DNA of 64,000 nt from Gemmatimonadetes bacterium SCN 70-22 (GTDB lineage: Bacteria; Gemmatimonadota; Gemmatimonadetes; Gemmatimonadales; Gemmatimonadaceae): contig MEDZ01000009.1 in NCBI GenBank assembly GCA_001724275.1, positions 108,543 to 172,542 of the forward strand, given 5' to 3'. The notes under the pieces are model-generated. The model saw only the letters and a list, made by a program, of their open reading frames with translations, searched no databases and was not told the origin of the DNA. Positions 1 to 38,658 of this stretch are shown piece after piece (within the stretch, counting starts at the first letter, position 1; each line of letters begins with the position of its first letter). The position numbers were made by a program, and so were the translations under genes.

Positions 1-147
1 GACGCCGAGCGCCGGCACCAGGAGCTGGCGACCGCGATCCGCCGCGAGGCCTGGGAGCTCCGCTCGGCCAAGGCCGACCGGACCGTCCTCGCGGCGATGT
101 TCGCCGAGTTCGCGCAGCGCCTCGTGGGCGACGGCGAGGCGCGTTAG
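1..147 (+). CDS. 3' end of a gene truncated by the window edge (unknown product)
   Basis: Frame 1 is open from the window edge with GC-rich third positions and ends ..VGDGEAR-TAG at 145-147. It lies 14 nt upstream of the next start. No recognisable domain. Confidence 0.45.
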   Translation, partial: DAERRHQELATAIRREAWELRSAKADRTVLAAMFAEFAQRLVGDGEAR

Positions 148-161
148 GCGCGCGCGGCGCG

Positions 162-1835
162 ATGGCCGACCGCTGGCAGGAGCTGCGGGACCTCCTGGTC
201 GACCCGGAGCGCGAGCGCATCCGGGAGATCGAGCGCAAGCTCGCCAACCCGGCCCTCCACGTCGACGAGGTCGCGCGCGTCCTGCCGGAGGCGATCACTC
301 GCCGCGCGGCGGGGGACGATCGGCTGGGGGCGGCGCTCGGGCCGGTGGTGGGCGAGGCGATTCGCTCGTCGGTGCGCCGCGACCCGCAGCCGCTGGTCGA
401 TGCGATCTTCCCGGTCATGGGACCGGCCATCCGCCGGGCCATCGCCAATGCGCTGGGCGAGCTCGTCCAGTCGCTGAACACCACCCTCGACCACACCTTC
501 TCGCTGCGGGGGCTGGCGTGGCGATGGGAGGCGATGCGCACCGGACGGTCGTTCGGCGAGGTGGTCCTCTCCCACTCGCTGGTCTACCGGGTGGAGCAGC
601 TCTTCGTGATCCACCGCGCGTCGGGGCTCCTGATCGACCATCGCACCGCCCCCGGGGTGCAGGCGCTCTCCCCCGACATGGTCGCCTCGATGATGACGGC
701 GTTGCGTGACTTCGCCCGCGACTCGTTCCACGCGGCGGAGCACGAAGGGCTGGACTCGTTCGCGTTAGGCGACCTGACCGTGTGGGCCGAGAGCGGGCCC
801 GGGGCGGTGCTGGCGGCGGTCATCCGCGGCGAGCCGCCGCGATCGCTGCGCGCCACGCTGCAGCGCGCGCTCGAGGAGGTGCACCTGGCCCATGGCGAGG
901 CGATCGACCGCTTCGCCGAGACGGGCGTCGCCTTCCCCGTGCGCGACGGCGTGCTCGAGCGCTGCCTGGTCACCAAGGCGCAGGAGCGCGCCGCGCGTCC
1001 CGCCGCCTGGCGCCTCTGGGTCGTGGGGGCGCTGGTGCTGGCGGGCGCGGGGTGGTGCGCCGTCCCGCGGGTGCTGGAGCAGCGCCGCTTCGACCGCTAC
1101 CTCGGGGCGCTGCGCCGGGAGCCCGGGGTGGTGATCGCCTCGACGGGACGGGAGCAGGGACGACGCTTCATCGTGGGGCTGCGCGACCCGCTGGCGCGCG
1201 ACCCCGGCGCGATGGCGGCTGCGGCCGGCTTCGACTCCACCCGCCTCGACGCCAAGTGGGAGCCGTACGTGGCGCTCCACCCGGCGTTCGTCGTGGCGCG
1301 CGCGCGGGCACTCCTCGTCCCGCCCCCCGCCACATCCTTGCGGCTGGCGGGCGACACGCTGGTCGCCCAGGGAGTGGCGCCCGCCGCGTGGCGACGGGAG
1401 GCGCAACGCCTCGCCCTCGCCGTTCCCGGAGTCGCGGCGTTGCGCCTGACGGATCTGGCCGACTCGGCCACCGTCGCCCTCCGTGCCGCCGCCGACTCGC
1501 TGGAGGCGGTCACCTTCGACTTCCCGCTCGGGAGCGCCCTCCCGGTCGCGGGCCAGGGGCCCCGCATCGACTCCCTGGCCACGCGCATCCGCGCCTTCCT
1601 CGCCAGCGCCGCGCGCGCCGAGCACGCCGCCACGATCGAACTCGTCGGCTCGGCCGACAGCGTCGGCACCGAGGCCACCAACGCCATCCTCCGCCAGGCC
1701 CGCGCCTCGCGCCTGCGCGCCGCCCTCATCGCCCGCGGGGCCGATCCTCGGTGGCTGGTGGCGACGCCAGACACGAGCGCCCTCGACCGCACCCAACGCA
1801 AGGTGCACCTGCGCATCACGCTCGCGCAGCCGTAG
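162..1835 (+). CDS. Single-pass membrane protein with an N-terminal cytoplasmic Roadblock/LC7-like segment and a C-terminal OmpA-like domain
   Basis: 557-aa ORF. Residues ~140-235 (VYRVEQLFVIHRASGLLIDH..DMVASMMTALRDFARDSF..AVLAAVIRGEPP) look Roadblock-like by eye. TM helix WRLWVVGALVLAGAGWCAV. C-terminal OmpA-type signature ELVGSADSVGTEATNAILRQARASRLRAAL. Confidence 0.85.
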   Translation: MADRWQELRDLLVDPERERIREIERKLANPALHVDEVARVLPEAITRRAAGDDRLGAALGPVVGEAIRSSVRRDPQPLVDAIFPVMGPAIRRAIANALGELVQSLNTTLDHTFSLRGLAWRWEAMRTGRSFGEVVLSHSLVYRVEQLFVIHRASGLLIDHRTAPGVQALSPDMVASMMTALRDFARDSFHAAEHEGLDSFALGDLTVWAESGPGAVLAAVIRGEPPRSLRATLQRALEEVHLAHGEAIDRFAETGVAFPVRDGVLERCLVTKAQERAARPAAWRLWVVGALVLAGAGWCAVPRVLEQRRFDRYLGALRREPGVVIASTGREQGRRFIVGLRDPLARDPGAMAAAAGFDSTRLDAKWEPYVALHPAFVVARARALLVPPPATSLRLAGDTLVAQGVAPAAWRREAQRLALAVPGVAALRLTDLADSATVALRAAADSLEAVTFDFPLGSALPVAGQGPRIDSLATRIRAFLASAARAEHAATIELVGSADSVGTEATNAILRQARASRLRAALIARGADPRWLVATPDTSALDRTQRKVHLRITLAQP

Positions 1836-1874
1836 CTTCGGATTCCCGTCTCCCGTCTCCCGCCCGCCCTCCCC

Positions 1875-2378
1875 ATGCCCGTCGTCCAGAGAAAAATCTG
1901 CATGCTCGGCGCCACCGGCGTCGGGAAGACCAGTCTCGTCAGGCGCTTCGTCGAGTCGATCTTCTCGGAGAAGTACCAGGCGACGATCGGCGTGAAGATC
2001 GACCGCAAGCTCGTGGAGCTGGGCGACACCACGGTCGCGCTGCTCCTCTGGGACCTGCAGGGGGAGGACGAGTTCCAGCGCGTGCGCATGTCGTACCTGC
2101 GCGGCGCCTCGGGGCTCATCTACGTCGCCGACGGGACGCGTCCCGAGACGCTCGCGACGACCCGGTCGATTCGAACGGTCGCCGAGGAGGCCGTCGGCGA
2201 CATCCCGTCGATCCTCCTGCTCAACAAGACCGACCTCGCCGGCGAGTGGGCGCTCGACGATGCTGCCGTCTCGGCGAACGGGCCGACAGGGGTCCCGGTC
2301 CTGCGCACCTCGGCGCTCACGGGGGACCAGGTGGAGGAGGCGTTCCATCAGCTCGTGCGCCGGATGATCGGCGCGTAG
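1875..2378 (+). CDS. Ras-superfamily (Rab-like) small GTPase
   Basis: 167 aa carrying all G-boxes: G1 GATGVGKT, G2 YQATIGV, G3 WDLQGED, G4 NKTD, G5 TSAL. Same strand as the OmpA-domain gene and 39 nt downstream of it. Confidence 0.9.
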   Translation: MPVVQRKICMLGATGVGKTSLVRRFVESIFSEKYQATIGVKIDRKLVELGDTTVALLLWDLQGEDEFQRVRMSYLRGASGLIYVADGTRPETLATTRSIRTVAEEAVGDIPSILLLNKTDLAGEWALDDAAVSANGPTGVPVLRTSALTGDQVEEAFHQLVRRMIGA

Positions 2379-2429
2379 GCGCCGGATGATCGGCGACGGG
2401 TGGGCCGGCATTCGTCGGTGCGATGCCTG

Positions 2430-2990
2430 TCAGCCCGCGAAGGGAGCTCGGGGAGTCTCGGGAATCTCTGGAGTCTCGGGAGCCTCGCCGGCGATCGGCT
2501 CGCCTCCACGCGCAAAGGCGAACGCGCCGCCAACCGCCACCACCCATGCCAGCGCCCCCACCATGCGCACGCCGCGTGCGATCTCGCGGTCACGCCCCAG
2601 CGCGTCCCATTCGGTGAGGAGATACCACCAGTCGTGCACGGCGTTCTCGCCTCCCAGCAGCGGGAGCTCCTGCGCGCGCGCATCACCGATGTACGACGCG
2701 ACGTTGAGGAGGTTGACGGCGACCCATGCCAGCACGACCGATGCGGCAAATCGGTCGCGACGCGTGACGAAGTAGGCGACGAAGGCGAGCGGGACGAGGA
2801 GCTGGAAGAGCGAACCTCCCGCGGTCATGCCATGGTCGCCGAATGGCTGGAAGATCACGTGCCCCGCCTCATGGATCGCGAGGTCGACGTCGTCCAGGAG
2901 GTCCCAGTAGTCTGCGTTGGCGAGCCGCCTCGCGGCGTAGGCGGCGAGGAGGGGGACGGCAAGGAGTCGGAGGGCGAGTCGGGGCTTCAT
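2430..2990 (-). CDS. Polytopic membrane protein with HExxH motif (metalloprotease-like, uncharacterised)
   Basis: 186 aa with a signal/TM N-terminus, motif DLAIHEAGHVIF, and several hydrophobic helices. Confidence 0.7.
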   Translation of the reverse strand: MKPRLALRLLAVPLLAAYAARRLANADYWDLLDDVDLAIHEAGHVIFQPFGDHGMTAGGSLFQLLVPLAFVAYFVTRRDRFAASVVLAWVAVNLLNVASYIGDARAQELPLLGGENAVHDWWYLLTEWDALGRDREIARGVRMVGALAWVVAVGGAFAFARGGEPIAGEAPETPEIPETPRAPFAG

Positions 2991-3084
2991 CGGGGTTTAC
3001 CCGGAAGACGACTCGCCCCGGTGGATTGGCACCCGGGCGGCACCGCGATTAGCGTCGAGGGAGGGTGCCGCGCGCGTAGCGGCG

Positions 3085-4248
3085 ATGTCGTTCATCCCTT
3101 TCCTCCGAAGGCACGTCCCGGTGAAGACGATTCGTTCGATGGCCGGCCGCCGCGCCGCTCCCCAGGTGGCGCCGGTGGCGCCGGTGGCGCCGGTGGCGCC
3201 GGTGGCGCGGTTCGCGCGCGCCACGCTGGTCGCGGCGCTTGCTGCCGTGGCGCTCCTCGTCCCTGCATCGACCGCGCGGGCGCAGGGTGCGCTGATCGTC
3301 CTCAACAAGGGTGACGCGCGGGCCTCCATCGTCGACCTCGCGAGCGGGAAGATCGTGAAGACGTACCCCACCGGCGAGGGCCCGCACGAGGTGGCGGTGA
3401 GCCCCGATGGGCGCACGGCGGTGGTGGGGAACTATGGAGGGCAGGCACCGGGGAACTCGCTCACGGTGCTCGACCTCGCCGGGCGTGCCGCCCCGCGCAC
3501 CATCTCGCTCGGCGAGTACCGGCGGCCGCACGGAATCGTCTGGCTGAAGGACGGGCGCCGCGTGCTGGTGACGGTGGAGATGAGCCGCGCGCTCCTCGTG
3601 GTGGACGCGATGGCTGGCGCGGTGGAGCGGGCGATCGCCACCGACCAGCAGGGGACCCACATGGTGGCGCTTGCCCCCGACGAGTCGATGGCGTACACGG
3701 CGAACATCGGATCGGGGAGCGTGAGCCGGATCGACCTGGCGGCCGGGAAGGCGGTGCAGGTGAAGGTGACGGGGAAGGGGCCCGAGGCGATCGACGTTTC
3801 GCCCGACGGGCGCGAGGTCTGGGCGGCCGACCGCACGCTGGACTACATCACGATCATGCGGGCCGGCACGCTGGACTCGTTAGGCTCGGCGCCGACGCGT
3901 CGCTTTCCCAACCGCCTCAAGTTCACCCCCGACGGCCGGCGCGTTCTGGTCTCCAACGCGGCGGCCGGGGCGATCACCGTGTACGACGCCGCCACGCGCG
4001 CGCTCATCAAGGCCATCGAGATCCCCTTCGACCCATCCAGGAAGAAGGCCGAGGTGGTCCTGGGTGACATGGGGAACAGTGCGGTCCCGCTGGGGATCCT
4101 GGTCGAACCCAACGGCCAGCGGGCCTGGGTGGCGACGGCGGCCCTGGGCGAGGTGGTGGAGCTCGACCTGGCGACGCTGTCGGTGCGTCGCACGATCGAC
4201 GCAGGAAACAACCCGGATGGCATGGCCTTCATCGCCCGCCTGCCTTGA
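3085..4248 (+). CDS. Secreted YVTN-type beta-propeller repeat protein
   Basis: Repeated GxGPHEVAVSPDG / IDVSPDGREVW / PDGMAF units and signal peptide ..LLVPASTARAQG. An alternative ATG start lies at 3139. Confidence 0.85.
   Translation: MSFIPFLRRHVPVKTIRSMAGRRAAPQVAPVAPVAPVAPVARFARATLVAALAAVALLVPASTARAQGALIVLNKGDARASIVDLASGKIVKTYPTGEGPHEVAVSPDGRTAVVGNYGGQAPGNSLTVLDLAGRAAPRTISLGEYRRPHGIVWLKDGRRVLVTVEMSRALLVVDAMAGAVERAIATDQQGTHMVALAPDESMAYTANIGSGSVSRIDLAAGKAVQVKVTGKGPEAIDVSPDGREVWAADRTLDYITIMRAGTLDSLGSAPTRRFPNRLKFTPDGRRVLVSNAAAGAITVYDAATRALIKAIEIPFDPSRKKAEVVLGDMGNSAVPLGILVEPNGQRAWVATAALGEVVELDLATLSVRRTIDAGNNPDGMAFIARLP
3165..3209 (+). repeat. 9-bp tandem repeat GGTGGCGCC x5 (last copy imperfect), in frame
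   Basis: Direct reading. It encodes (VAP)n in the n-region of the signal peptide of the YVTN protein. Confidence 0.9.
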
Positions 4249-5199: not shown

Positions 5200-6297
5200 A
5201 TGCCGCGGCCGGCGCTCGACCGGTCGCGTGCGTGCCGCCTGTGGGCCACGGGCGCGGCGCTCCTCCTCGGGGGCGCCGCGCCCGTCGCCGCTCAGGCCAC
5301 GCCCGCGGCATCGTCCCGCCCGCGGGTCCACATCCTCGCGACCGGCGGGACGATCTCGAACCTGGGGAACGACCGGCGCCGGACGGGCACCGAACTGGTG
5401 GACGGGATTGCCGGACTTCGCGAGATGGCCACCGTCACCGTGGAGCAGTTCCGCAACGTCGCCTCGGGAAGCATCACGCACGACGACTGGCGGAAGCTCG
5501 CGGCGCGCATCCGTCAGCTGCAAACATCTCCCGACGCCCCGGCCGGCTACGTCATCACGCACGGCACCGACACCATGGAGGAGACGGCCTGGTTCCTCTT
5601 GCTCACCGTGGGCGGGTGCGAGCCGGTGATCCTCACCGGGGCGATGCGCCCCGCGAACGCCGTGGGGGCCGATGGCCCGGCCAACCTGCGGAACGCGGTG
5701 CGCGCGGCCATCGCCCCCGCGTCGCGCGGCCGTGGCGCGATGATCCTGATGAACGACGAGATCTTCGCCGCGCGCGACGTCACCAAGTCCAACACCACGC
5801 GCCTCAACGCCTTCACCGCGCCCGATGCCGGCGTCCTGGGGCTCGCCGACCCCGACACGCTCGTGTACCACCGCCCGCCGCCTGCCACGTGCCCCGCGCC
5901 GGCGTTCGACCTCGGGACCATTGGCCCCTTCCCGCGCGTCGACGTGGTGTATGCGCACATCGGTGCCGACTCGGTGACGGTGGATGCCCTCGTCGAGGCA
6001 GGGGCGAAGGGGGTGGTCGTGGCAGGGGTCGGACGTGGCGGAACGACGCCGTCCATGGGACGGGCACTCGAGCGTGCCACGGAACGGGGGGTGATGGTCG
6101 TCGTCTCCAACCGGACGGGAAGCGGGCGCGTGGGGGTGCGCAGCGAACCCGACTCGCTCGATGCGCTCCCGCCGGGGCGCGGGGCGTTCGTCGGCGCCAC
6201 GGACCTCAATCCGCAGAAGGCGCGCATCCTCCTCATGCTCGCCCTCGCGGCGCACCTGGAGCCGGTGGCCATCGTCGAGCAGTTCAACGCGCGCTGA
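5200..6297 (+). CDS. ansB: Periplasmic L-asparaginase, type II
   Basis: Signal peptide followed by the asparaginase signatures ILATGGTIS and THGTDTMEETA. The start lies 2 nt after the dat stop. Confidence 0.85.
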   Translation: MPRPALDRSRACRLWATGAALLLGGAAPVAAQATPAASSRPRVHILATGGTISNLGNDRRRTGTELVDGIAGLREMATVTVEQFRNVASGSITHDDWRKLAARIRQLQTSPDAPAGYVITHGTDTMEETAWFLLLTVGGCEPVILTGAMRPANAVGADGPANLRNAVRAAIAPASRGRGAMILMNDEIFAARDVTKSNTTRLNAFTAPDAGVLGLADPDTLVYHRPPPATCPAPAFDLGTIGPFPRVDVVYAHIGADSVTVDALVEAGAKGVVVAGVGRGGTTPSMGRALERATERGVMVVVSNRTGSGRVGVRSEPDSLDALPPGRGAFVGATDLNPQKARILLMLALAAHLEPVAIVEQFNAR

Positions 6298-7689: not shown

Positions 7690-7706
7690 ACGAGAAGACG
7701 AGAGGG
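7686..7706 (+). repeat. Copy 1 of the dispersed (AGAAGACG)n-AGAG element
   Basis: ATAGACG-AGAAGACG-AGAGGG, overlapping the TAG stop of the M20 gene. Confidence 0.6.
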
Positions 7707-7718
7707 CGACGGCGGTTG

Positions 7719-8411
7719 CTACAGCCAATGCCTCACCTGTTCGCCATACAGCGTTCGCATGGTGCGGCGGTTGACGGGGAGGGCGCTGGCCTTGAACGCC
7801 TGGAAGCGGCGCAGCACGCGCTGGTGGCGACGCTCGCCCATCGGCAGGGGGACGTGCGGCATGTCGATCAGCGCCCGCTCCACCCGCCACACGCTACGAC
7901 GGCTTAGGCGCCAGTCGGCGGGGGTGAGGGCGTCGAGGTGGGCGACGCCATAGGCGTTGAGGCGCCCGGAGCCGTCGACATACGGGTCCATGTAGCTGCG
8001 CACGAGTGCGGGGATCGACCGAAACACCGGCGGTCGGCCGTGCAGCCCGTAGTCGCGCGATCGCGCCACGGTCCCCCAATGGCCGTCGTGCCGGTACAGG
8101 AACAGGACGTGGTCGAGCCCGTCGTCGCTCTCGATGTCGAGGACGGCGGGCGGGTAGCCATGGTGCTCCAGGATCGCCGCGGTGAAGAGGACCGCCTCCA
8201 GGCACGACGCGCGCCCGGCGGCCACCGAGCCTCGGAAGCTGCGCAGCGTGTGCTCCCAGTTGTAGGGGAGCGAGCGCAGGTAGCGTTGCACCTGGAGGGG
8301 CGTCCGGAGCCGGGCGATCAGGCGCCGCTCCCGCCGGGTATACGCGGCGGGCGACGGCGTGCGTACCGGCGCCGACAGGATGCGTTCGAGATCGGGGCGA
8401 CGCATCGGCAT
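7719..8411 (-). CDS. Hypothetical protein, possibly a transglutaminase-like cysteine-protease fold
   Basis: Good GC3 frame. The Cys/His/Asp-containing core (RASCLEAVLFTAAILEHHGY .. DGLDHV) is suggestive only. Start taken at MPMRRPDL; the ORF is open to 8504. Confidence 0.55.
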   Translation of the reverse strand: MPMRRPDLERILSAPVRTPSPAAYTRRERRLIARLRTPLQVQRYLRSLPYNWEHTLRSFRGSVAAGRASCLEAVLFTAAILEHHGYPPAVLDIESDDGLDHVLFLYRHDGHWGTVARSRDYGLHGRPPVFRSIPALVRSYMDPYVDGSGRLNAYGVAHLDALTPADWRLSRRSVWRVERALIDMPHVPLPMGERRHQRVLRRFQAFKASALPVNRRTMRTLYGEQVRHWL

Positions 8412-8777
8412 GCGCGGGAGAGGGGGCGGGCGAGTTCGGCTTGCAGCGGGAAGCCTATCGCGGTGACCACCCGCGGACCAGCGCGAGATCCCCTGGTACC
8501 CCACGGCAGGCGGCGGCGCACCACGCCCGCGCGCATGCAGCCCGACGTCTCGGCGCCCCGGTTGCCGCCGGCGCTCCGGTCGCCGCCGGCGCTCCGTCGC
8601 GGAGGCTGGTGCACCGGGCGATGTGTCGAGGTGCCGGCGAGCGGTTCACGGGCCAACGATCGCTCCCCCCTCCGCGTCCTCTCGGTAGCGGCGCCGGTCA
8701 CCGTCCTCGGCCACCGGCGTCGCCCGACGCATCGACGTCGCTCACCTCCCCCCGGCCTCCACCCTCCCCGCCTTACA

Positions 8778-10418
8778 ATGACGCGTCGTCCCTCCCGCGT
8801 GCTCGCCGCCCTTGCCGCCGGCGCCGCCGCCCTCGCCCCCGTCGTCGCCCCCGCGCAGCAGCGGCCGGCCGGAGCTGCAACGCAGCCCGCCGCCGTCATC
8901 ACCCGCCAGTTCGGCGACCTGGGCGCCGGTCCGTACAAGTCGCTCGTCATCCGCAATGCCATGGTGATCCCCGGGCACGGCGGTCCGCCCGCCGGCCCGT
9001 ACGACATCATGATCGAGGGGAACATGATCACGCAGATGGTCCCCTTCGACCCGGTCGCCGCCGAGCGGCGCGGGGCGGGCTCGCGGATGACGGGTGACCG
9101 CATCATCGAGGCCGAGGGGAAGTACGTGATGCCGGGGATGATCGACCTCCACACGCACATCCGCACCCTCCCCGAGGAGATCGAGTACGTCTACTACCTG
9201 AAGCTGGCGATGGGCGTCACCACCATGGTGAACGCCGCCGATCGCGGCTACGCCAACGGCATGGAAGAGGCGAAGAAGAGCGCCGCCAACGAGATCATCG
9301 CCCCGCGCATGTTCCCGCTGGTGAGCTACGGTGCCGGGACCAGCTTCAAGGGGCGGCAGCTCGATGACCCGGCGATGGCGTCCCAGGTGGTGAAGGCCAT
9401 GGCCGCCAACGGCAACCGGGTCATCTCGATGGACCCGTTAGGCTGGTCGCTCGACCTCGTGGCCGCCATCGCCAAGGCGGCGAAGGAGAACGGGATGATC
9501 ACCTCGTTCCACCTGCAGCCGTCCAACACCGCCGTCACGCAGGCGGTGAAGGCGGCGTGCGCCGGCGTCACGATGATCGAGCACCATTACGGCTACGCCG
9601 AGTCGGCGCTGGACAACAAGACGCAGGACTTCCCGCGCACCTACAACTACGGCAACGAGAACGACCGCTTCCGCGAGGCGGGAAAGGTGTGGACGTACAC
9701 CAACAAGGAGCGCCTGCTCAACGAGGTGGCCGACACGCTCGTGAAGTGCGGCGTCACGATGCTCCCCACGCGCGTGGTGTACGAGGCCAATCGCGACGTC
9801 ATCCGCGCCACGTCGCTCCCGTGGACCGACAAGTACACCCACCAGGCGCTGTGGAACTGGAACCTCCCCAACCCCGCCTACCACGGCTCGTTCCACTATG
9901 ACTGGACGAGCGACGACGAGTACTACTGGACGACCGCGTTCCGCCTGTGGGGCGACCTGATCTACGAGTTCAACAAGCGCGGCGGGCGCGTGGCGTTCGG
10001 CACCGACGACAACTACATCTGGGCCACCCCGGGCTTCTCGTCCGTCCGCGAGCTGCAACTCCAGCGCGAGACGGGGATGCACGGGCTCGAGGTGATCAAG
10101 ACCGCCACCCTGAACTCGGCGCAGACGCTGGGCGAGCCGCAGCTGGGGCTCGTGCGACCCGGCTACAAGGCCGACCTCCTGATCGTCGACGGCAACCCGG
10201 CCGCCAACCTCAAGTACCTCTACTCGTTCGGTGACCTGGCCCTCGACAAGGACGGGAAGATGATCCGCACGAAGGGGATCGTGCACACCATCAAGGACGG
10301 CGTGGTGCTGAACAACGCCCGCCTCATGGAAGAGGTCGAGAAGATGGTGCAGGCGTCGCGCAAGCTCGCCCCGGCGGTCGACGTGATGCGCGATCCGTTC
10401 CGTGTCGGCAAGCCGTAA
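8778..10418 (+). CDS. Secreted amidohydrolase-family metal-dependent hydrolase
   Basis: Signal peptide MTRRPSRVLAALAAGAAALAPVVAPAQQ, HxH motif MPGMIDLHTHI, C-terminal GTDDNY. The upstream part of the 826-aa ORF is Arg/Pro-rich off-gene read-through. Confidence 0.85.
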   Translation: MTRRPSRVLAALAAGAAALAPVVAPAQQRPAGAATQPAAVITRQFGDLGAGPYKSLVIRNAMVIPGHGGPPAGPYDIMIEGNMITQMVPFDPVAAERRGAGSRMTGDRIIEAEGKYVMPGMIDLHTHIRTLPEEIEYVYYLKLAMGVTTMVNAADRGYANGMEEAKKSAANEIIAPRMFPLVSYGAGTSFKGRQLDDPAMASQVVKAMAANGNRVISMDPLGWSLDLVAAIAKAAKENGMITSFHLQPSNTAVTQAVKAACAGVTMIEHHYGYAESALDNKTQDFPRTYNYGNENDRFREAGKVWTYTNKERLLNEVADTLVKCGVTMLPTRVVYEANRDVIRATSLPWTDKYTHQALWNWNLPNPAYHGSFHYDWTSDDEYYWTTAFRLWGDLIYEFNKRGGRVAFGTDDNYIWATPGFSSVRELQLQRETGMHGLEVIKTATLNSAQTLGEPQLGLVRPGYKADLLIVDGNPAANLKYLYSFGDLALDKDGKMIRTKGIVHTIKDGVVLNNARLMEEVEKMVQASRKLAPAVDVMRDPFRVGKP

Positions 10419-35140: not shown

Positions 35141-37447
35141 ATGGACGCGGCGATGATTCGGACCGGGCTTCGCTCGAGACCACGGGTGGCGATCGCGATC
35201 GCCGGTACCGCGCTCGCCCTGGGCGCAGGTGCTCTCGTCGTCGTGCGCGCGCCGCACCCGCGAGCGCGTCCCGACATCGCGCGCGAGTTCTCGTCAGGCG
35301 CCCGATGGGGCGATTCGCTGGAACGGGCGCTGGCTCGCCAGCCCGCGCGCGAGATGCCGGCGGGGTCGGTCATGGCGGCGCTGTACCTCGAGCGATTGCG
35401 GCTCGGCGTCGGGAGTCCGTTCCGGCTCATCGACTACGCCCTCCGCGACCCCCTCGTCCCCGAGCCGATGCGCCGTCCGCTGGCGGAGGCGATCCTGGCG
35501 CGAACGAGTGTGGGGGCGACGTATGCGACCCCCGCCGAGGCGCTCGACCTCGTCGCCCGTCGCCCCGGCGATGGGAGCGGGCTCGCGCACCGGCAATTCA
35601 TGGAATCGGTGACCGAGGAGTCGGATTCTCCGCGAGCGGCGGAGCTCGGGCTGCGTCTCGCGTACTCGGTGGGGACGGCGAGCGGCGCGGTATCGCACCG
35701 CGCATCGTCGGTGGCGCTTGGGGCAATTGCCCAGGCGCGCGACCGGGCCCTGGCCATGCGTGACGTGGCGGCGCTCCTGGCGGAGTCACGCCGCCAGCGT
35801 CTCGACCCGGTGGACTTGGTGCCGCTCTGGCGAGCGGCGCGGCGCTTCTCCGTCGAGCGCCCACTCGTCGATCCTCCGCATGTCGAGGAGGAGGCGGCGG
35901 CAGTTCGTCTCCTTCCGCAGCTCGCCCGTCGTCTCGACTCGCTGGAGCAGCAGCCGGTACCGGCTGCGACCGTGCGCTCGTTGGGGGGCGAGGCGGGGCG
36001 CGTGGCGTCGGAGCTGGTGGCCCGTCGTGCCGCGCCGCCGCAGGCCCCTGTCACGGTCACGATGGGGGGCTACGCCTCGTACGTGGCCGGCGCTAAGGTC
36101 GCCTCGGAGGGGGGGAACGCGCGGTCGCAGTTCGTGGCCCGCGCCCGCACGGAGGAGTCGCTCGTCGCCGAGTTGGCGCGGCTGCGGGGTGTCGTCGGAC
36201 CGTCGACCGAGGCGGCGCTTGCCACCCTCGCCGCCTCCGTCGCGATGCGGGCCTATGCGCAGGAACGGGCCTGGCTTCCTGGCGATGACGGCCCGGCGGC
36301 TCTCGAGCTGCAGGGACGCCTGGGGCTGGCCTCGCTCTCCTTCGATGACCGGGTGCCAACGGCCTGGCGCCCCTATTACACGCGGATGCTGAGCGAGGTG
36401 GTGACCGACCTCGCCACCGTCTTTCCCTCGCTCGACCTGCGCGGCCTGAACGTGCGCTTCGGCGAGTCGCCGCTGGCCGATCGTGCCCTCGCCCTCCACG
36501 ACCCCGCGACGCGTACGGTCTACTTCCCCCTCGCCACCAGTGCGGGAGCGATGGCGCACGAGCTTGCGCACGACCTGGACTGGCAGGCGGCCCGCCGACG
36601 CTACGGCGTGCGCGGCGGATACCGGACCGATCGCTCCGTCAGGCAGTACAGTGACCAGCTCTCGGTCACCGTGCGCCGCCTTGCCAGTGCGGCGCGCCCC
36701 AGGCGCGAGTCGCTGGCGTCGTCGGTACAGGCCGATCGCCCCACCGAGGCGTTCGCGCGCGGCGTGGACTGGTTCGTCGCCGCCGCGCTGGCGCACCGGG
36801 GGCGCTCGAACGGCTACCTGAGCGCCGTTCAGGACGCATCCATCACCGGATACGCATCGGCTGCGGCTCCGCACGGGGGGGCGATCGAGGGCGACGCCAC
36901 GCTCGACGCGCTGCGTGAGATCGCGACGGTCGACGCATCGGTCGTTGCGTGGTACGACACGACGTACGGAAGCGGGCGGCGCCTCGGGGTCGGCGACGCC
37001 GTGCGCCGCACCTTGGTCGCGCCGCTGTCGCGCATGGACATCAGCGCCGGTGCTCCGACCGGGTTCGGCGCGGTGTCGGCGACGTTACGGGCGCTGCGCG
37101 AGTCGCCGGAGGCGGCCGAGGGGTGGCAGTGCCTGCTGGATGCGCCATCGCTCCGCGGACGCACTGCCGCCGTGCAGGATGCGATGCGCATTGCCGCCGA
37201 GGCGCGCGCGAACGGCCTCGTCCAGCGCTGGGGCGACTACGCGCGCACGGTCCCCGGGGCTGCCTGGCGGTTCCGCGCGTTAGGCGGGGCCCCCTGGAAT
37301 CCGGCCACGCGCGACTCGGTCGTGCGCGAGGTGCGCGACGCGATCCTCTGGCGCGCCGCGCGTCCCGACGACGGGCGGGCCGGGCTCGATTTCGCCGAGC
37401 GTGCCGAGCGGCGCGCCGCGTGGGCGCACTGCGCCGCGGGCGAGTAG
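35141..37447 (+). CDS. Large hypothetical protein (768 aa) with an N-terminal TM anchor and one HExxH motif
   Basis: GGAGG lies upstream of the ATG. TM helix VAIAIAGTALALGAGALVVV and motif AGAMAHELAHDLDW. No other recognisable domains. Confidence 0.75.
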   Translation: MDAAMIRTGLRSRPRVAIAIAGTALALGAGALVVVRAPHPRARPDIAREFSSGARWGDSLERALARQPAREMPAGSVMAALYLERLRLGVGSPFRLIDYALRDPLVPEPMRRPLAEAILARTSVGATYATPAEALDLVARRPGDGSGLAHRQFMESVTEESDSPRAAELGLRLAYSVGTASGAVSHRASSVALGAIAQARDRALAMRDVAALLAESRRQRLDPVDLVPLWRAARRFSVERPLVDPPHVEEEAAAVRLLPQLARRLDSLEQQPVPAATVRSLGGEAGRVASELVARRAAPPQAPVTVTMGGYASYVAGAKVASEGGNARSQFVARARTEESLVAELARLRGVVGPSTEAALATLAASVAMRAYAQERAWLPGDDGPAALELQGRLGLASLSFDDRVPTAWRPYYTRMLSEVVTDLATVFPSLDLRGLNVRFGESPLADRALALHDPATRTVYFPLATSAGAMAHELAHDLDWQAARRRYGVRGGYRTDRSVRQYSDQLSVTVRRLASAARPRRESLASSVQADRPTEAFARGVDWFVAAALAHRGRSNGYLSAVQDASITGYASAAAPHGGAIEGDATLDALREIATVDASVVAWYDTTYGSGRRLGVGDAVRRTLVAPLSRMDISAGAPTGFGAVSATLRALRESPEAAEGWQCLLDAPSLRGRTAAVQDAMRIAAEARANGLVQRWGDYARTVPGAAWRFRALGGAPWNPATRDSVVREVRDAILWRAARPDDGRAGLDFAERAERRAAWAHCAAGE

Positions 37448-37456
37448 CCGGGAGCT

Positions 37457-37558
37457 CCCGGGCGACGGCCGCTAACCGGCGGCCGCCCCTCCCGGGCGAC
37501 GGCCGCTAACCGGCGGCCGCCCCTCCCGGGCGACGACCGCTAACCGGCGGCCGCCCCT
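37457..37558. repeat. 34-bp tandem repeat x3, each unit containing hairpin GGCCGC-taaccg-GCGGCC
   Basis: CCCGGGCGACGGCCGCTAACCGGCGGCCGCCCCT repeated three times, with a single G-to-A change in copy 3. It lies between convergent genes, and copy 3 supplies the last codons and the stop of the MscS-like gene. Confidence 0.9.
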
Positions 37559-38658
37559 CCCGCGCCACGCGCCTCGCCCGACACCGCCGCTCCATCGGCC
37601 GACGTGTGGATGATGGTGCGCGTGGGGAAGGCGAACTCGATCCGCTCGGCGTTGAAGCGTCGCAGCAGCGCGAGGTTCACCTTCTGCTGCGTATCCATGA
37701 ACGTCAGGTAGTCGTTGGTGGTCATGTAGTAGACCACTTCGAACTCGAGCGACGAGTCCATGAAGCGGGCGAAGTGCGCACGGTCGAATCGCGTGTGCTC
37801 CATCGCCTCGATGATCGACCGGATGATGGTGGGGACCTGCTCGACCTTTTCCGGCGGGGTGTCGTAGGTGATCCCGATGGTGAAGACGATGCGCCGCTCC
37901 GCCATCCGCTTGAGGTTGCGGACGCGCGACTTCAGCAGGTCGGCGTTGGAGAAGATGACCTGTTCGCCGCCAAGGGCGCGGATGCGGGTCGTCTTGAGCC
38001 CGATGTGTTCGACGGTCCCGACGGCGGTGTCGACGGCGATGGTATCGCCGATCTCGAAGGGCTTGTCGAGGACGATCGAGAGGGCGGCGAAGACGTCGCC
38101 GAGGATGTTCTGGACGGCGAGGGCGATGGCGATACCGCCGATCCCCAGGCCGGTGACCAGGGCCGCGATGTCGAAGTTCCAGACGTTCTTGAGCGCGATG
38201 AGGGCGACGAACGACCAGAGCACGCCTCGCGCGAGGACGCCGATGGCATTGATCGTCGCCGAGGTCGAGCTTTCGCCCCCATTGCGCCCGCGCGACCACT
38301 TCGCGAGCCAGAAATTGATGAGCGCGCTCCCCCAGACCGCGAACTGGAGGAGGATCGCGATGCTGGTGAGGTCGTCCAGCACTTCGCGGGCGAAGGGCGT
38401 AAGGACGAGTGCGTGCGATCCGGCACGCAGGGAGAGGGCGAGGATGAAGTAGTAGCGGGTGCGCCCGAGCAGGTCGGAGGCGACGTCGTCGAGTTGGGTG
38501 GCGGTGCGATTGGCCAGGGTGGCGAGGCGGCGGCCGATGACGTGCCTGACGGTGTACAGCAGCAGACCAATCGCGACCGCGATGGCGCCGGCGGTGACCC
38601 AGTCGGCGATCGGGTTGCCGAGGAACGATCGATCGAGTGAAGCGAGCGACGGCAGCAT
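37540..38658 (-). CDS. MscS-family mechanosensitive channel
   Basis: TM3/beta-domain signature GLGIGGIAIALAVQNILGDVFAALSIVLDKPFEIGDTI..GTVEHIGLKTTRIR. Start taken at MLPSLASL. Confidence 0.85.
   Translation of the reverse strand: MLPSLASLDRSFLGNPIADWVTAGAIAVAIGLLLYTVRHVIGRRLATLANRTATQLDDVASDLLGRTRYYFILALSLRAGSHALVLTPFAREVLDDLTSIAILLQFAVWGSALINFWLAKWSRGRNGGESSTSATINAIGVLARGVLWSFVALIALKNVWNFDIAALVTGLGIGGIAIALAVQNILGDVFAALSIVLDKPFEIGDTIAVDTAVGTVEHIGLKTTRIRALGGEQVIFSNADLLKSRVRNLKRMAERRIVFTIGITYDTPPEKVEQVPTIIRSIIEAMEHTRFDRAHFARFMDSSLEFEVVYYMTTNDYLTFMDTQQKVNLALLRRFNAERIEFAFPTRTIIHTSADGAAVSGEARGAGGAAAG

Follow-up and report, generated by a model that had tools for sequence, protein, structure and literature searches.

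A stretch of 64,000 nt from the genome of Gemmatimonadetes bacterium SCN 70-22 (contig MEDZ01000009.1, positions 108,543 to 172,542; referred to here as the window, ~71% G+C) opens with three genes on the same strand: the 3´ end of a gene for a coiled-coil protein (gene A), a gene for a membrane protein with a C-terminal OmpA-like domain (gene B) and a gene for a small GTPase of the Ras superfamily (Table 1). Judged by its genes and their order, this locus very probably represents, in Gemmatimonadota, the 'Group 1 Rup' neighbourhood (DUFY>DUFX:OmpA>Rup) that Wuichet and Sogaard-Andersen described in 2014 (PMC4316618). In structural models, the cytoplasmic side of gene B carries a predicted Roadblock-like domain whose first match among solved structures is the GTPase regulator MglB. 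The overall explanation that we somewhat favour is a Group 1 Rup operon in which gene B would act as a Roadblock platform linking the cell envelope to the GTPase switch.

Table 1. Positions in the window of the cassette genes, the parts of gene B and the repeat at the end of the GTPase gene.
Feature	Position	Strand	Basis or remark
Gene A ('DUFY', cytoplasmic coiled-coil protein), 3´ end	1..147	+	cut by window edge
Gene B ('DUFX:OmpA'), 557-aa single-pass inner-membrane protein, N-terminus cytoplasmic	162..1835	+	open reading frame
Gene B aa 1-130, most sequence-conserved part, helical with low confidence	162..551	+	
Gene B aa ~131-254, predicted Roadblock/LC7 (MglB-like) alpha/beta domain	552..923	+	predicted structure
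Gene B aa ~283-303, sole transmembrane helix (WRLWVVGALVLAGAGWCAV)	1008..1070	+	hydropathy and model
Gene B aa ~323-428, two small periplasmic alpha/beta units, tentatively BON-like	1128..1445	+	model and Foldseek
Gene B aa ~430-555, periplasmic OmpA/Pal-like peptidoglycan-binding domain	1449..1826	+	fold and conserved motif
Rup (Group 1) small Ras-superfamily GTPase, 167 aa	1875..2378	+	Pfam Ras and motifs
Tandem-duplicated 22-nt unit at the end of the GTPase gene	2358..2396	+	sequence and alignment; not a functional part

Genes A and B are separated by 14 nt, and gene B and the GTPase gene by 39 nt. These gaps, together with the two complete open reading frames (ORFs) and the truncated upstream gene, had been given by an initial annotation made from the sequence and were recovered unchanged. 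The window retains the last 48 codons of gene A and its TAG stop (145-147), in a frame that is open through the window edge. In a strain-level relative (locus L005), where gene B is 99% identical, gene A is full length (184 aa; 7691-8245), and its C-terminus is 98% identical to the fragment in the window. In Gemmatimonadota, Mesorhizobium and Verrucomicrobia, the gene preceding gene B can be aligned with the same fragment. The members of this family are coiled-coil proteins of ~185-220 aa with a conserved N-terminal motif, VDKIRDILFGxQMRDYDRRF; the Pfam matches of gene A were coiled-coil-type noise scattered over many unrelated families. The nearest relatives of the window were Gemmatimonadota metagenome bins. 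No promoter-like or terminator-like sites were detected in positions 1-3200, and neither Rfam families nor tRNAs were found in the window. The lack of terminator-like sites between the genes is consistent with an operon, as are the overlapping start and stop codons within the cassettes of two related loci (L003 and L087).

Gene B has more than 1000 homologues. Its cytoplasmic part was represented by 3783 clusters at 50% identity, 1545 of them with an E value of 1e-30 or lower, and a scan of species-representative genomes confirmed at least 552 cassette loci. Synteny was examined in a sample of 80 species-level genome loci from about ten phyla, which covered Gemmatimonadota, Acidobacteriota, Cyanobacteria, Nitrospira, Desulfobacterota, Binatia, Armatimonadota, Gammaproteobacteria, Verrucomicrobia and Alphaproteobacteria. 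Of the 76 loci in which the sequence reached far enough, 73 have the GTPase gene directly downstream of gene B and in the same orientation; the exceptions were two Desulfobacterota loci, in which it is upstream on the other strand, and one locus with no GTPase gene. A homologue of gene A was found directly upstream of gene B at 76 of the 77 loci with room for one. The adjacency of the trio is far beyond chance. The pairing of gene B with the GTPase noted in the initial annotation is thus a conserved one, and the conservation extends to the truncated upstream gene.

Fusions between members of the trio were also considered. Two candidate gene A fusions (P0255 and P0316) were rejected, as their N-terminal extensions are low-complexity tails, and a gene A hidden Markov model (HMM) matched none of the 387 proteins retrieved; GTPase fusions longer than 240 aa were likewise not found. 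Apparent fusions of the GTPase to an output protein in L066 and L073 were dismissed because an in-frame stop leaves separate genes. Directly upstream of gene A, on the same strand, L001 (885-4611) and L005 (3714-7404) carry genes for an extracytoplasmic function (ECF) sigma factor, two HEAT-repeat proteins and a ~255-272-aa protein without a Pfam match, a block that lies beyond the left edge of the window. The two HEAT-repeat genes recur upstream in the Gemmatimonadaceae loci L008, L009 and L015, and a functional link of the HEAT-repeat and ECF sigma genes to the cassette is possible.

The GTPase matched Pfam Ras (PF00071) with an E value of 2.8e-29 over residues 7-164 of 167. It is a single-domain protein with G1-G5 intact (GATGVGKT, 12-19; TIGV, 37-40; WDLQGED, 59-65; NKTD, 117-120; TSAL, 145-148), including the G3 Asp (D60), so the complete Ras-superfamily GTPase read from these motifs in the initial annotation is borne out. 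Its closest solved structures were Rab1B (2.1e-24), Rab1A and Sec4, all with E values of ~2e-24. The term 'Rab-like' used earlier holds as a similarity and not as a family assignment; the protein very probably belongs to the bacterial Rup1 (Group 1 Rup) GTPases, and it departs from eukaryotic Rabs in having neither a prenylation Cys at its C-terminus (...HQLVRRMIGA) nor the catalytic Gln. The residue aligned with that Gln (Q67 of Rab1B, Q61 of HRAS) is Glu64, as the initial annotation had remarked, and the replacement is lineage-wide: among 80 orthologues from related loci, the position is Glu in 61 and Gln in three. GxxxxGKT, DxxG, NKxD and SA were conserved in every aligned sequence of this set, the switch-I Thr37 position is Thr in 71 and Ser in seven, and the position of Ras Gly12 is Thr in the window GTPase and Phe in most orthologues. 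Identity to the GTPase of the Mesorhizobium cassette is 54%, and to the cassette GTPases of non-Gemmatimonadota loci 47-60%. The conservation of G1-G5 across the orthologues indicates that nucleotide binding is maintained. The protein thus appears to be a nucleotide-binding switch with a hydrolysis chemistry that departs lineage-wide from that of Ras and Rab, and not a degenerate copy. With Glu where the catalytic Gln would be, and a bulky side chain in place of Ras Gly12, the GTPase is expected to depend on a partner for efficient hydrolysis.

The GTPase gene ends in a 22-nt unit (GCGCCGGATGATCGGCGCGTAG) that includes the TAG stop and is present in two tandem copies in the window and in three copies in L005, the 99%-identical relative, and is thus a copy-number-variable mini-repeat. 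L001 and L009 lack the repeat and have two extra genes at that position.

The Rup family and its Group 1 were defined in PMC4316618, where Group 1 GTPases lack the G3 Gln and have as neighbours a coiled-coil protein (DUFY) and DUFX, the latter often with a transmembrane helix and a C-terminal OmpA domain. The window has the same three genes in the same order: a coiled-coil DUFY and a DUFX-transmembrane-OmpA protein stand adjacent to a GTPase that lies within the 150-240-aa size range, has G1-G5 and the G3 Asp and lacks the catalytic Gln. The taxa given for the neighbourhood in Table S2 of that paper are cyanobacteria, Nitrospira and alpha-, delta-, epsilon- and gamma-proteobacteria, and the loci related to ours share taxa with it (Nostoc/Anabaena, Nitrospira and Mesorhizobium); examples of the cassette lie at Npun_F1891 of Nostoc punctiforme and at mlr3243 of Mesorhizobium loti. 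Gemmatimonas/Gemmatimonadetes are listed there for MglA only and not for Rup. The paper also describes a 'fourth highly conserved gene', which encodes an output protein for signalling (kinase, GGDEF/EAL and similar) with an invariant Gln towards its N-terminus; the strings of Table S2 give the three core genes without the fourth. The window differs from this description in missing the output gene. DUFX is of unknown function in the paper, whereas we predict an MglB-like Roadblock fold for it; its authors report MglB homologues coupled to none of the Rup GTPases, and no characterised member of the family. The Rup1 GTPases group together with eukaryotic Rab, Ras, Rho and Ran (PMC4316618; bioRxiv 10.1101/2024.02.28.582541). 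A literature search, which did not cover most subscription journals, returned no experimental work on Group 1 Rup/Rup1, no link between DUFX and Roadblock proteins, and no regulator, effector or phenotype for any Rup1 GTPase. The statement in the initial annotation that no system with this architecture has been characterised thus holds for experimental work, whereas the cassette, the missing Gln and the idea of a GTPase-activating protein (GAP) acting in trans had all been published (PMC4316618). The architecture is therefore not new; what is new here is a phylum not listed in the paper and a reduced form of the cassette without the gene for the Gln-containing module.

An AlphaFold2 model of gene B, built on 59 homologues (mean predicted local distance difference test score (pLDDT) 80.4), has four regions: low-confidence helices (1-127), an alpha/beta domain, a long transmembrane helix and three periplasmic alpha/beta units. 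There is a single hydropathy peak (Kyte-Doolittle 19-residue maximum of 1.78, centred on aa 290-296), and the transmembrane segment falls within helix 283-319 of the model. From the lack of a signal peptide in gene B, and because domains of the OmpA and BON types reside in the periplasm, we infer that its N-terminus is in the cytoplasm and its C-terminus in the periplasm. Scans with Pfam and NCBIfam gave nothing for gene B beyond a sub-threshold match to OmpA (PF00691; residues 480-534, E 0.003, 18.3 bits, below the 27.2 cutoff). Among the 59 homologues, 51 match Pfam OmpA (best 3e-12), and the threshold is passed by more distant homologues, such as those of L003 (3.3e-12) and L002 (4.6e-11). 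In a Foldseek search, the C-terminal unit matched Pal (4g4w) with an E value of 2.3e-6 and a template modelling score (TM score) of 0.75, as well as OmpA C-domains. The peptidoglycan-binding motif G-S-A-D499-S-V-G502-x4-N507-x2-L510-x3-R514-A is kept in the family, with D499 in 58, G502 in 59, N507 in 56 and R514 in 59 of the 59 homologues. The Asp and Arg of OmpA and Pal domains are the residues that contact the peptide stem of peptidoglycan. The single transmembrane helix and periplasmic OmpA-type domain of the initial annotation are thus upheld, with the Pfam match below threshold.

The units at aa ~323-428 were modelled with pLDDT above 90 and matched the BON and OmpA domains of Rv0899 (2l26; E 3.6e-6), as well as DolP (7a2d), OsmY (8rjx) and BonA (6v4v), with E values of 2-4e-4; Pfam BON matched one of the 59 homologues (E 0.004). 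The periplasmic half therefore appears to be BON-like plus OmpA-like, with the BON label tentative. Rv0899/ArfA (OmpATb), Pal and MotB provide the nearest parallels, as this half superposes on Pal/OmpA C-domains and on the BON and OmpA domains of Rv0899 and retains the Asp and Arg; gene B differs from these proteins in its large cytoplasmic domain and its pairing with a GTPase, both of which they lack.

On the cytoplasmic side, the alpha/beta domain has the element order a1-b1-b2-a2-b3-b4-b5-a3 (DSSP assignment of the model: H131-139, E140-151, E157-162, H171-189, E199-202, E205-211, E215-223 and H227-254), with pLDDT values of 81-92 in the strands. A second, independent AlphaFold2 model, of the domain alone (residues 111-263), had the identical element order (pLDDT 79, predicted template modelling score 0.67). 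When the isolated domain was compared with the PDB using Foldseek, MglB from the MglA-MglB complex was the first match (3t12_C, E 2.7e-4), followed by the further MglB entries 3t1r, 3t1s and 1j3w. Further matches were Ego3, the C-terminal Roadblock domains of Rag proteins, LAMTOR/MP1-p14, Asgard Roadblock proteins and MglC, mixed with longin proteins (AP sigma subunits, zeta-COP, Mon1-Ccz1 and TRAPP). The top 50 PDB matches were all Roadblock or longin proteins, nearly all from small-GTPase or vesicle-coat complexes, and no PAS, GAF or other sensor folds were among them. Compared with the topologies of the two folds, the model favours an MglB-type Roadblock domain over a longin, in that strand 1 is immediately preceded by a helix and strand 5 is followed by one helix only. 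We consider it likely that aa 131-254 do adopt a Roadblock/longin fold.

Towards the N-terminus of gene B, residues L41, P42, P75, P84, P88-A89-I90-R91, N106, W120, R121, E123 and R126 are invariant within aa 1-130, which matched nothing in Pfam or NCBIfam and were modelled with pLDDT values of 46-75. The stretch at aa 40-135, predicted as low-confidence helices (46-63), may need a partner or the membrane in order to fold, and aa 1-130 may be a partner-binding region.

Following the GTPase, the gene in 69 loci encodes mostly a histidine kinase (HATPase_c in 30), and otherwise cyclases, sigma-54 activators and SpoIIE phosphatases. A homologous N-terminal module is common to 56 of these genes. 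The Gln in its QKAR motif is 98% conserved, which fits the description of the fourth gene in PMC4316618, and an HMM of this Gln module matched 68 of 86 loci. The HMM had no match in a six-frame translation of the 64-kb window and none in 11 Gemmatimonadota loci, within 6-10 kb. The absence of the module from both suggests that in this phylum the output partner is not in the cassette and is perhaps encoded elsewhere. The arrangements seen in Gemmatimonadota instead are a PAS histidine kinase gene upstream, a receiver-like gene downstream in some loci, a gene for an outer-membrane OmpA porin downstream in some Gemmatimonadales, and the HEAT-repeat and ECF sigma genes upstream in the family to which the window belongs; the window's own clade (L005 and L006) has neither the PAS kinase nor the receiver gene. 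The outer-membrane OmpA proteins that follow the Rup GTPase in Gemmatimonadales/Gemmatimonadota (L019, 9084-10721; L041, 7156-8898; L052, 3645-5300) consist of a beta-barrel, thrombospondin type 3 repeats and an OmpA domain, and so place a second peptidoglycan-binding protein nearby.

One natural fusion bears on how the parts are arranged. In P0331 (L087, 6001-8316, on a 127-kb contig), the Gln module is fused N-terminally to the DUFX, transmembrane and OmpA parts (HMM E 6e-34). This gene has neighbours at 5342-5965, 8313-8810 and 8824-10035; it is flanked by DUFY and Rup genes, and the kinase after the cassette keeps a Gln module of its own (E 8e-74) and is followed by a sigma-54 response regulator. 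By the logic of a Rosetta-stone link, the fusion would put the output module physically at the cytoplasmic face of gene B, and it supports gene B as the putative assembly point of the pathway.

Taken together, these features suggest the following mechanism for a Group 1 Rup operon. The Roadblock domain, probably dimeric as in MglB, Ragulator and Mon1-Ccz1, would be a docking platform for the Rup GTPase, and gene B would set either the nucleotide state of the GTPase, as a GAP helper or a guanine nucleotide exchange factor (GEF), or its residence at the membrane. In this way a GTP/GDP switch at the cytoplasmic face would receive the state or position of the envelope as its input. The coiled-coil protein would serve as adaptor or effector, and in most phyla an adjacent kinase or cyclase with a Gln module would read or complete the switch. 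Direct regulation of the GTPase by the gene B domain is plausible, if a little short of probable. We put forward still more tentatively the specific proposal that DUFX holds a true MglB-type Roadblock module that controls the Rup GTPase directly, as a GAP or GEF.

Known systems offer partial parallels for such an arrangement. In the MglA-MglB polarity switch of Myxococcus and Thermus (PDB 3t12), the gene for a small Ras-superfamily GTPase also stands beside one for a Roadblock-fold protein, MglB, to which the gene B domain has its best structural match, and hydrolysis depends on a partner, as would be expected here from the missing Gln. MglB, however, is small and soluble and matches Robl_LC7 (PF03259), whereas the gene B domain does not and forms part of a 557-aa membrane protein with a predicted peptidoglycan anchor. 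The GTPases differ as well: that of the window belongs to the Rup type, has the G3 Asp, is closest to Rab and carries Glu at the catalytic position, while MglA lacks that Asp and has an intrinsic Gln. Ragulator-Rag, Mon1-Ccz1-Rab7/Ypt7 and TRAPP all use membrane-held Roadblock or longin domains to regulate Ras-like GTPases, and structures of such eukaryotic platforms are among the fold matches (5ldd, 2j3t, 6ulg and 5x6u). The likeness is one of predicted fold, as there is no detectable sequence homology, and these platforms are held by lipidation rather than by a transmembrane helix and peptidoglycan. The actinobacterial conservon (CvnA-D/Mfp), an analogy already drawn in PMC4316618, combines a membrane histidine kinase, a Roadblock protein, a DUF742 protein and an MglA-like GTPase, and thus resembles the small GTPase, Roadblock fold, protein of unknown function and, in most phyla, histidine kinase of the Rup cassettes. 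Its MfpD is a Roadblock-fold GAP (PMC13015309). The conservon differs in that its GTPase is of MglA group 2 rather than Rup1 and its Roadblock fold is on a separate soluble protein rather than fused to a membrane and peptidoglycan anchor; the window also lacks the kinase.

Several observations weigh against a Roadblock platform that controls the GTPase. The fold scores are moderate, with Foldseek E values of 3e-4 to 3e-3, TM scores of 0.42-0.57, pLDDT of 61-67 in helix a2, and longins interleaved among the matches. At the level of sequence, neither Pfam Robl_LC7 nor NCBIfam detected the domain in gene B of the window, Robl_LC7 matched one of the 59 family members (E 0.04), and a search of all PDB sequences with a domain profile found no Roadblock protein, its one chance match being to a phage tail (E 1). 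The Roadblock-like segment of the initial annotation, which had been placed by eye, accordingly stands as a predicted fold with MglB as top PDB match and not as demonstrable homology; of the three families that annotation had named, Ras was matched clearly, OmpA below the cutoff and Roadblock not at all. In addition, the best-conserved stretch of the gene B family is aa 40-135 (window positions 279-566) and not the Roadblock domain, the lineage of the window has no adjacent output gene, and a different GAP has been proposed, namely the invariant Gln of the fourth gene as a catalytic residue acting in trans (PMC4316618). The predicted structures, moreover, do not separate the roles of GAP, GEF and passive scaffold.

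Roadblock and longin platforms are known in all three roles, with MglB and MfpD being GAPs, Ragulator, Mon1-Ccz1 and TRAPP being GEFs, and MglC and LAMTOR subunits, which are among the matches of the domain, being scaffolds. Gene B could therefore be a membrane and peptidoglycan anchor or scaffold without effect on the nucleotide cycle, with the Gln-module protein or a factor encoded elsewhere as the GAP. The near-invariant Gln of QKAR and the presence of the module at most loci, as PMC4316618 describes, speak for such a division of labour, and the L087 fusion suits a scaffold that gathers components. We nevertheless consider this explanation rather unlikely: the window and all 11 Gemmatimonadota loci keep a Glu64-type GTPase with no Gln module over the distances searched, so that something else must serve there, and apart from genes A and B no partner is invariant; MglB, which the gene B domain resembles most closely in predicted fold, is itself a GAP. 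The moderate fold scores and missing sequence signal would also fit a generic dimerisation or ligand-sensing module, with the GTPase acting mainly through gene A, for example in a cytoskeleton-like or polarity function. Gene A is as strictly conserved as gene B and has its own family motif, and MglA-type GTPases act on coiled-coil and cytoskeletal effectors. This possibility seems improbable to us given that the top 50 structural neighbours are all Roadblock or longin proteins, with no sensor fold among them, and that the element order fits Roadblock exactly.

The periplasmic domain prompts comparison with a stator-like or Zorya-like envelope machine, possibly anti-phage, in which gene B would correspond to ZorB/MotB and gene A would mimic the tail of ZorA. 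ZorB (8qyd_F) and MotB are indeed among the fold matches of gene B, through the OmpA-like domain, and gene A has weak PADLOC matches to the ZorA tail (E 4e-4 to 3e-3). These latter matches are confined to the coiled-coil region and were judged compositional, like the scatter of coiled-coil Pfam families, and PADLOC gave nothing for gene B or the GTPase. Furthermore, the cassette has no channel protein of the MotA/ZorA type, the ~280-aa cytoplasmic domain of gene B is absent from MotB and ZorB, and the neighbouring genes are of housekeeping and signalling types, with no defence islands. We therefore reject this explanation as highly improbable, and the Group 1 Rup operon with gene B as a Roadblock platform is the one that we retain.

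Beyond the cassette, the next gene in the window is a convergent ORF for a 186-aa membrane protein (2430-2990, - strand) with no Pfam or other family match. Its C-terminal end contains five copies of a 9-nt tandem repeat (GGGAGTCTC, 2442-2487) that encodes a PET/PEI peptide repeat. A perfect 9-nt repeat of 4.9 copies (3165-3217) lies in the ORF at 3085-4248, which encodes a beta-propeller protein (lactonase/YncE-like), and gives rise to (APV)n in its N-terminal signal-like region. Another tandem repeat, with a 34-nt unit in 3.4 copies (96% matches), is intergenic and occupies 37455-37569, right after the ORF at 35141-37447.

The gain from this analysis is a sharpened hypothesis on the regulator of Rup GTPases and not a new system. 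Relative to the 2014 paper, it adds the predicted MglB-like fold in DUFX, the BON-like annotation, the natural Gln-module fusion and Gemmatimonadota loci without the Gln module. Among bacterial proteins, the Rup1 GTPases show the closest clustering with eukaryotic Rab, Ras, Rho and Ran, and their cassette is widespread, with at least ~550 loci in species-representative genomes. A predicted MglB-like fold in the invariant membrane partner makes that partner a candidate for the missing Rup regulator, one that is cheap to test, and points to a switch that takes its input from the cell envelope. Since the Gemmatimonadota loci keep the three core genes and have no Gln-module kinase, they form a minimal system, provided by nature, in which to ask whether these three genes suffice to cycle the GTPase. 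If the proposal of direct control by an MglB-type module is true, the partnership of Roadblock proteins with small GTPases would not be confined to MglA, contrary to the 2014 conclusion, and would extend to Rup1. A Roadblock-Rup1 pair hard-wired to peptidoglycan in a single polypeptide would then be a direct transducer from envelope to GTPase, and a bacterial counterpart of platforms of the Ragulator and Mon1-Ccz1 type.

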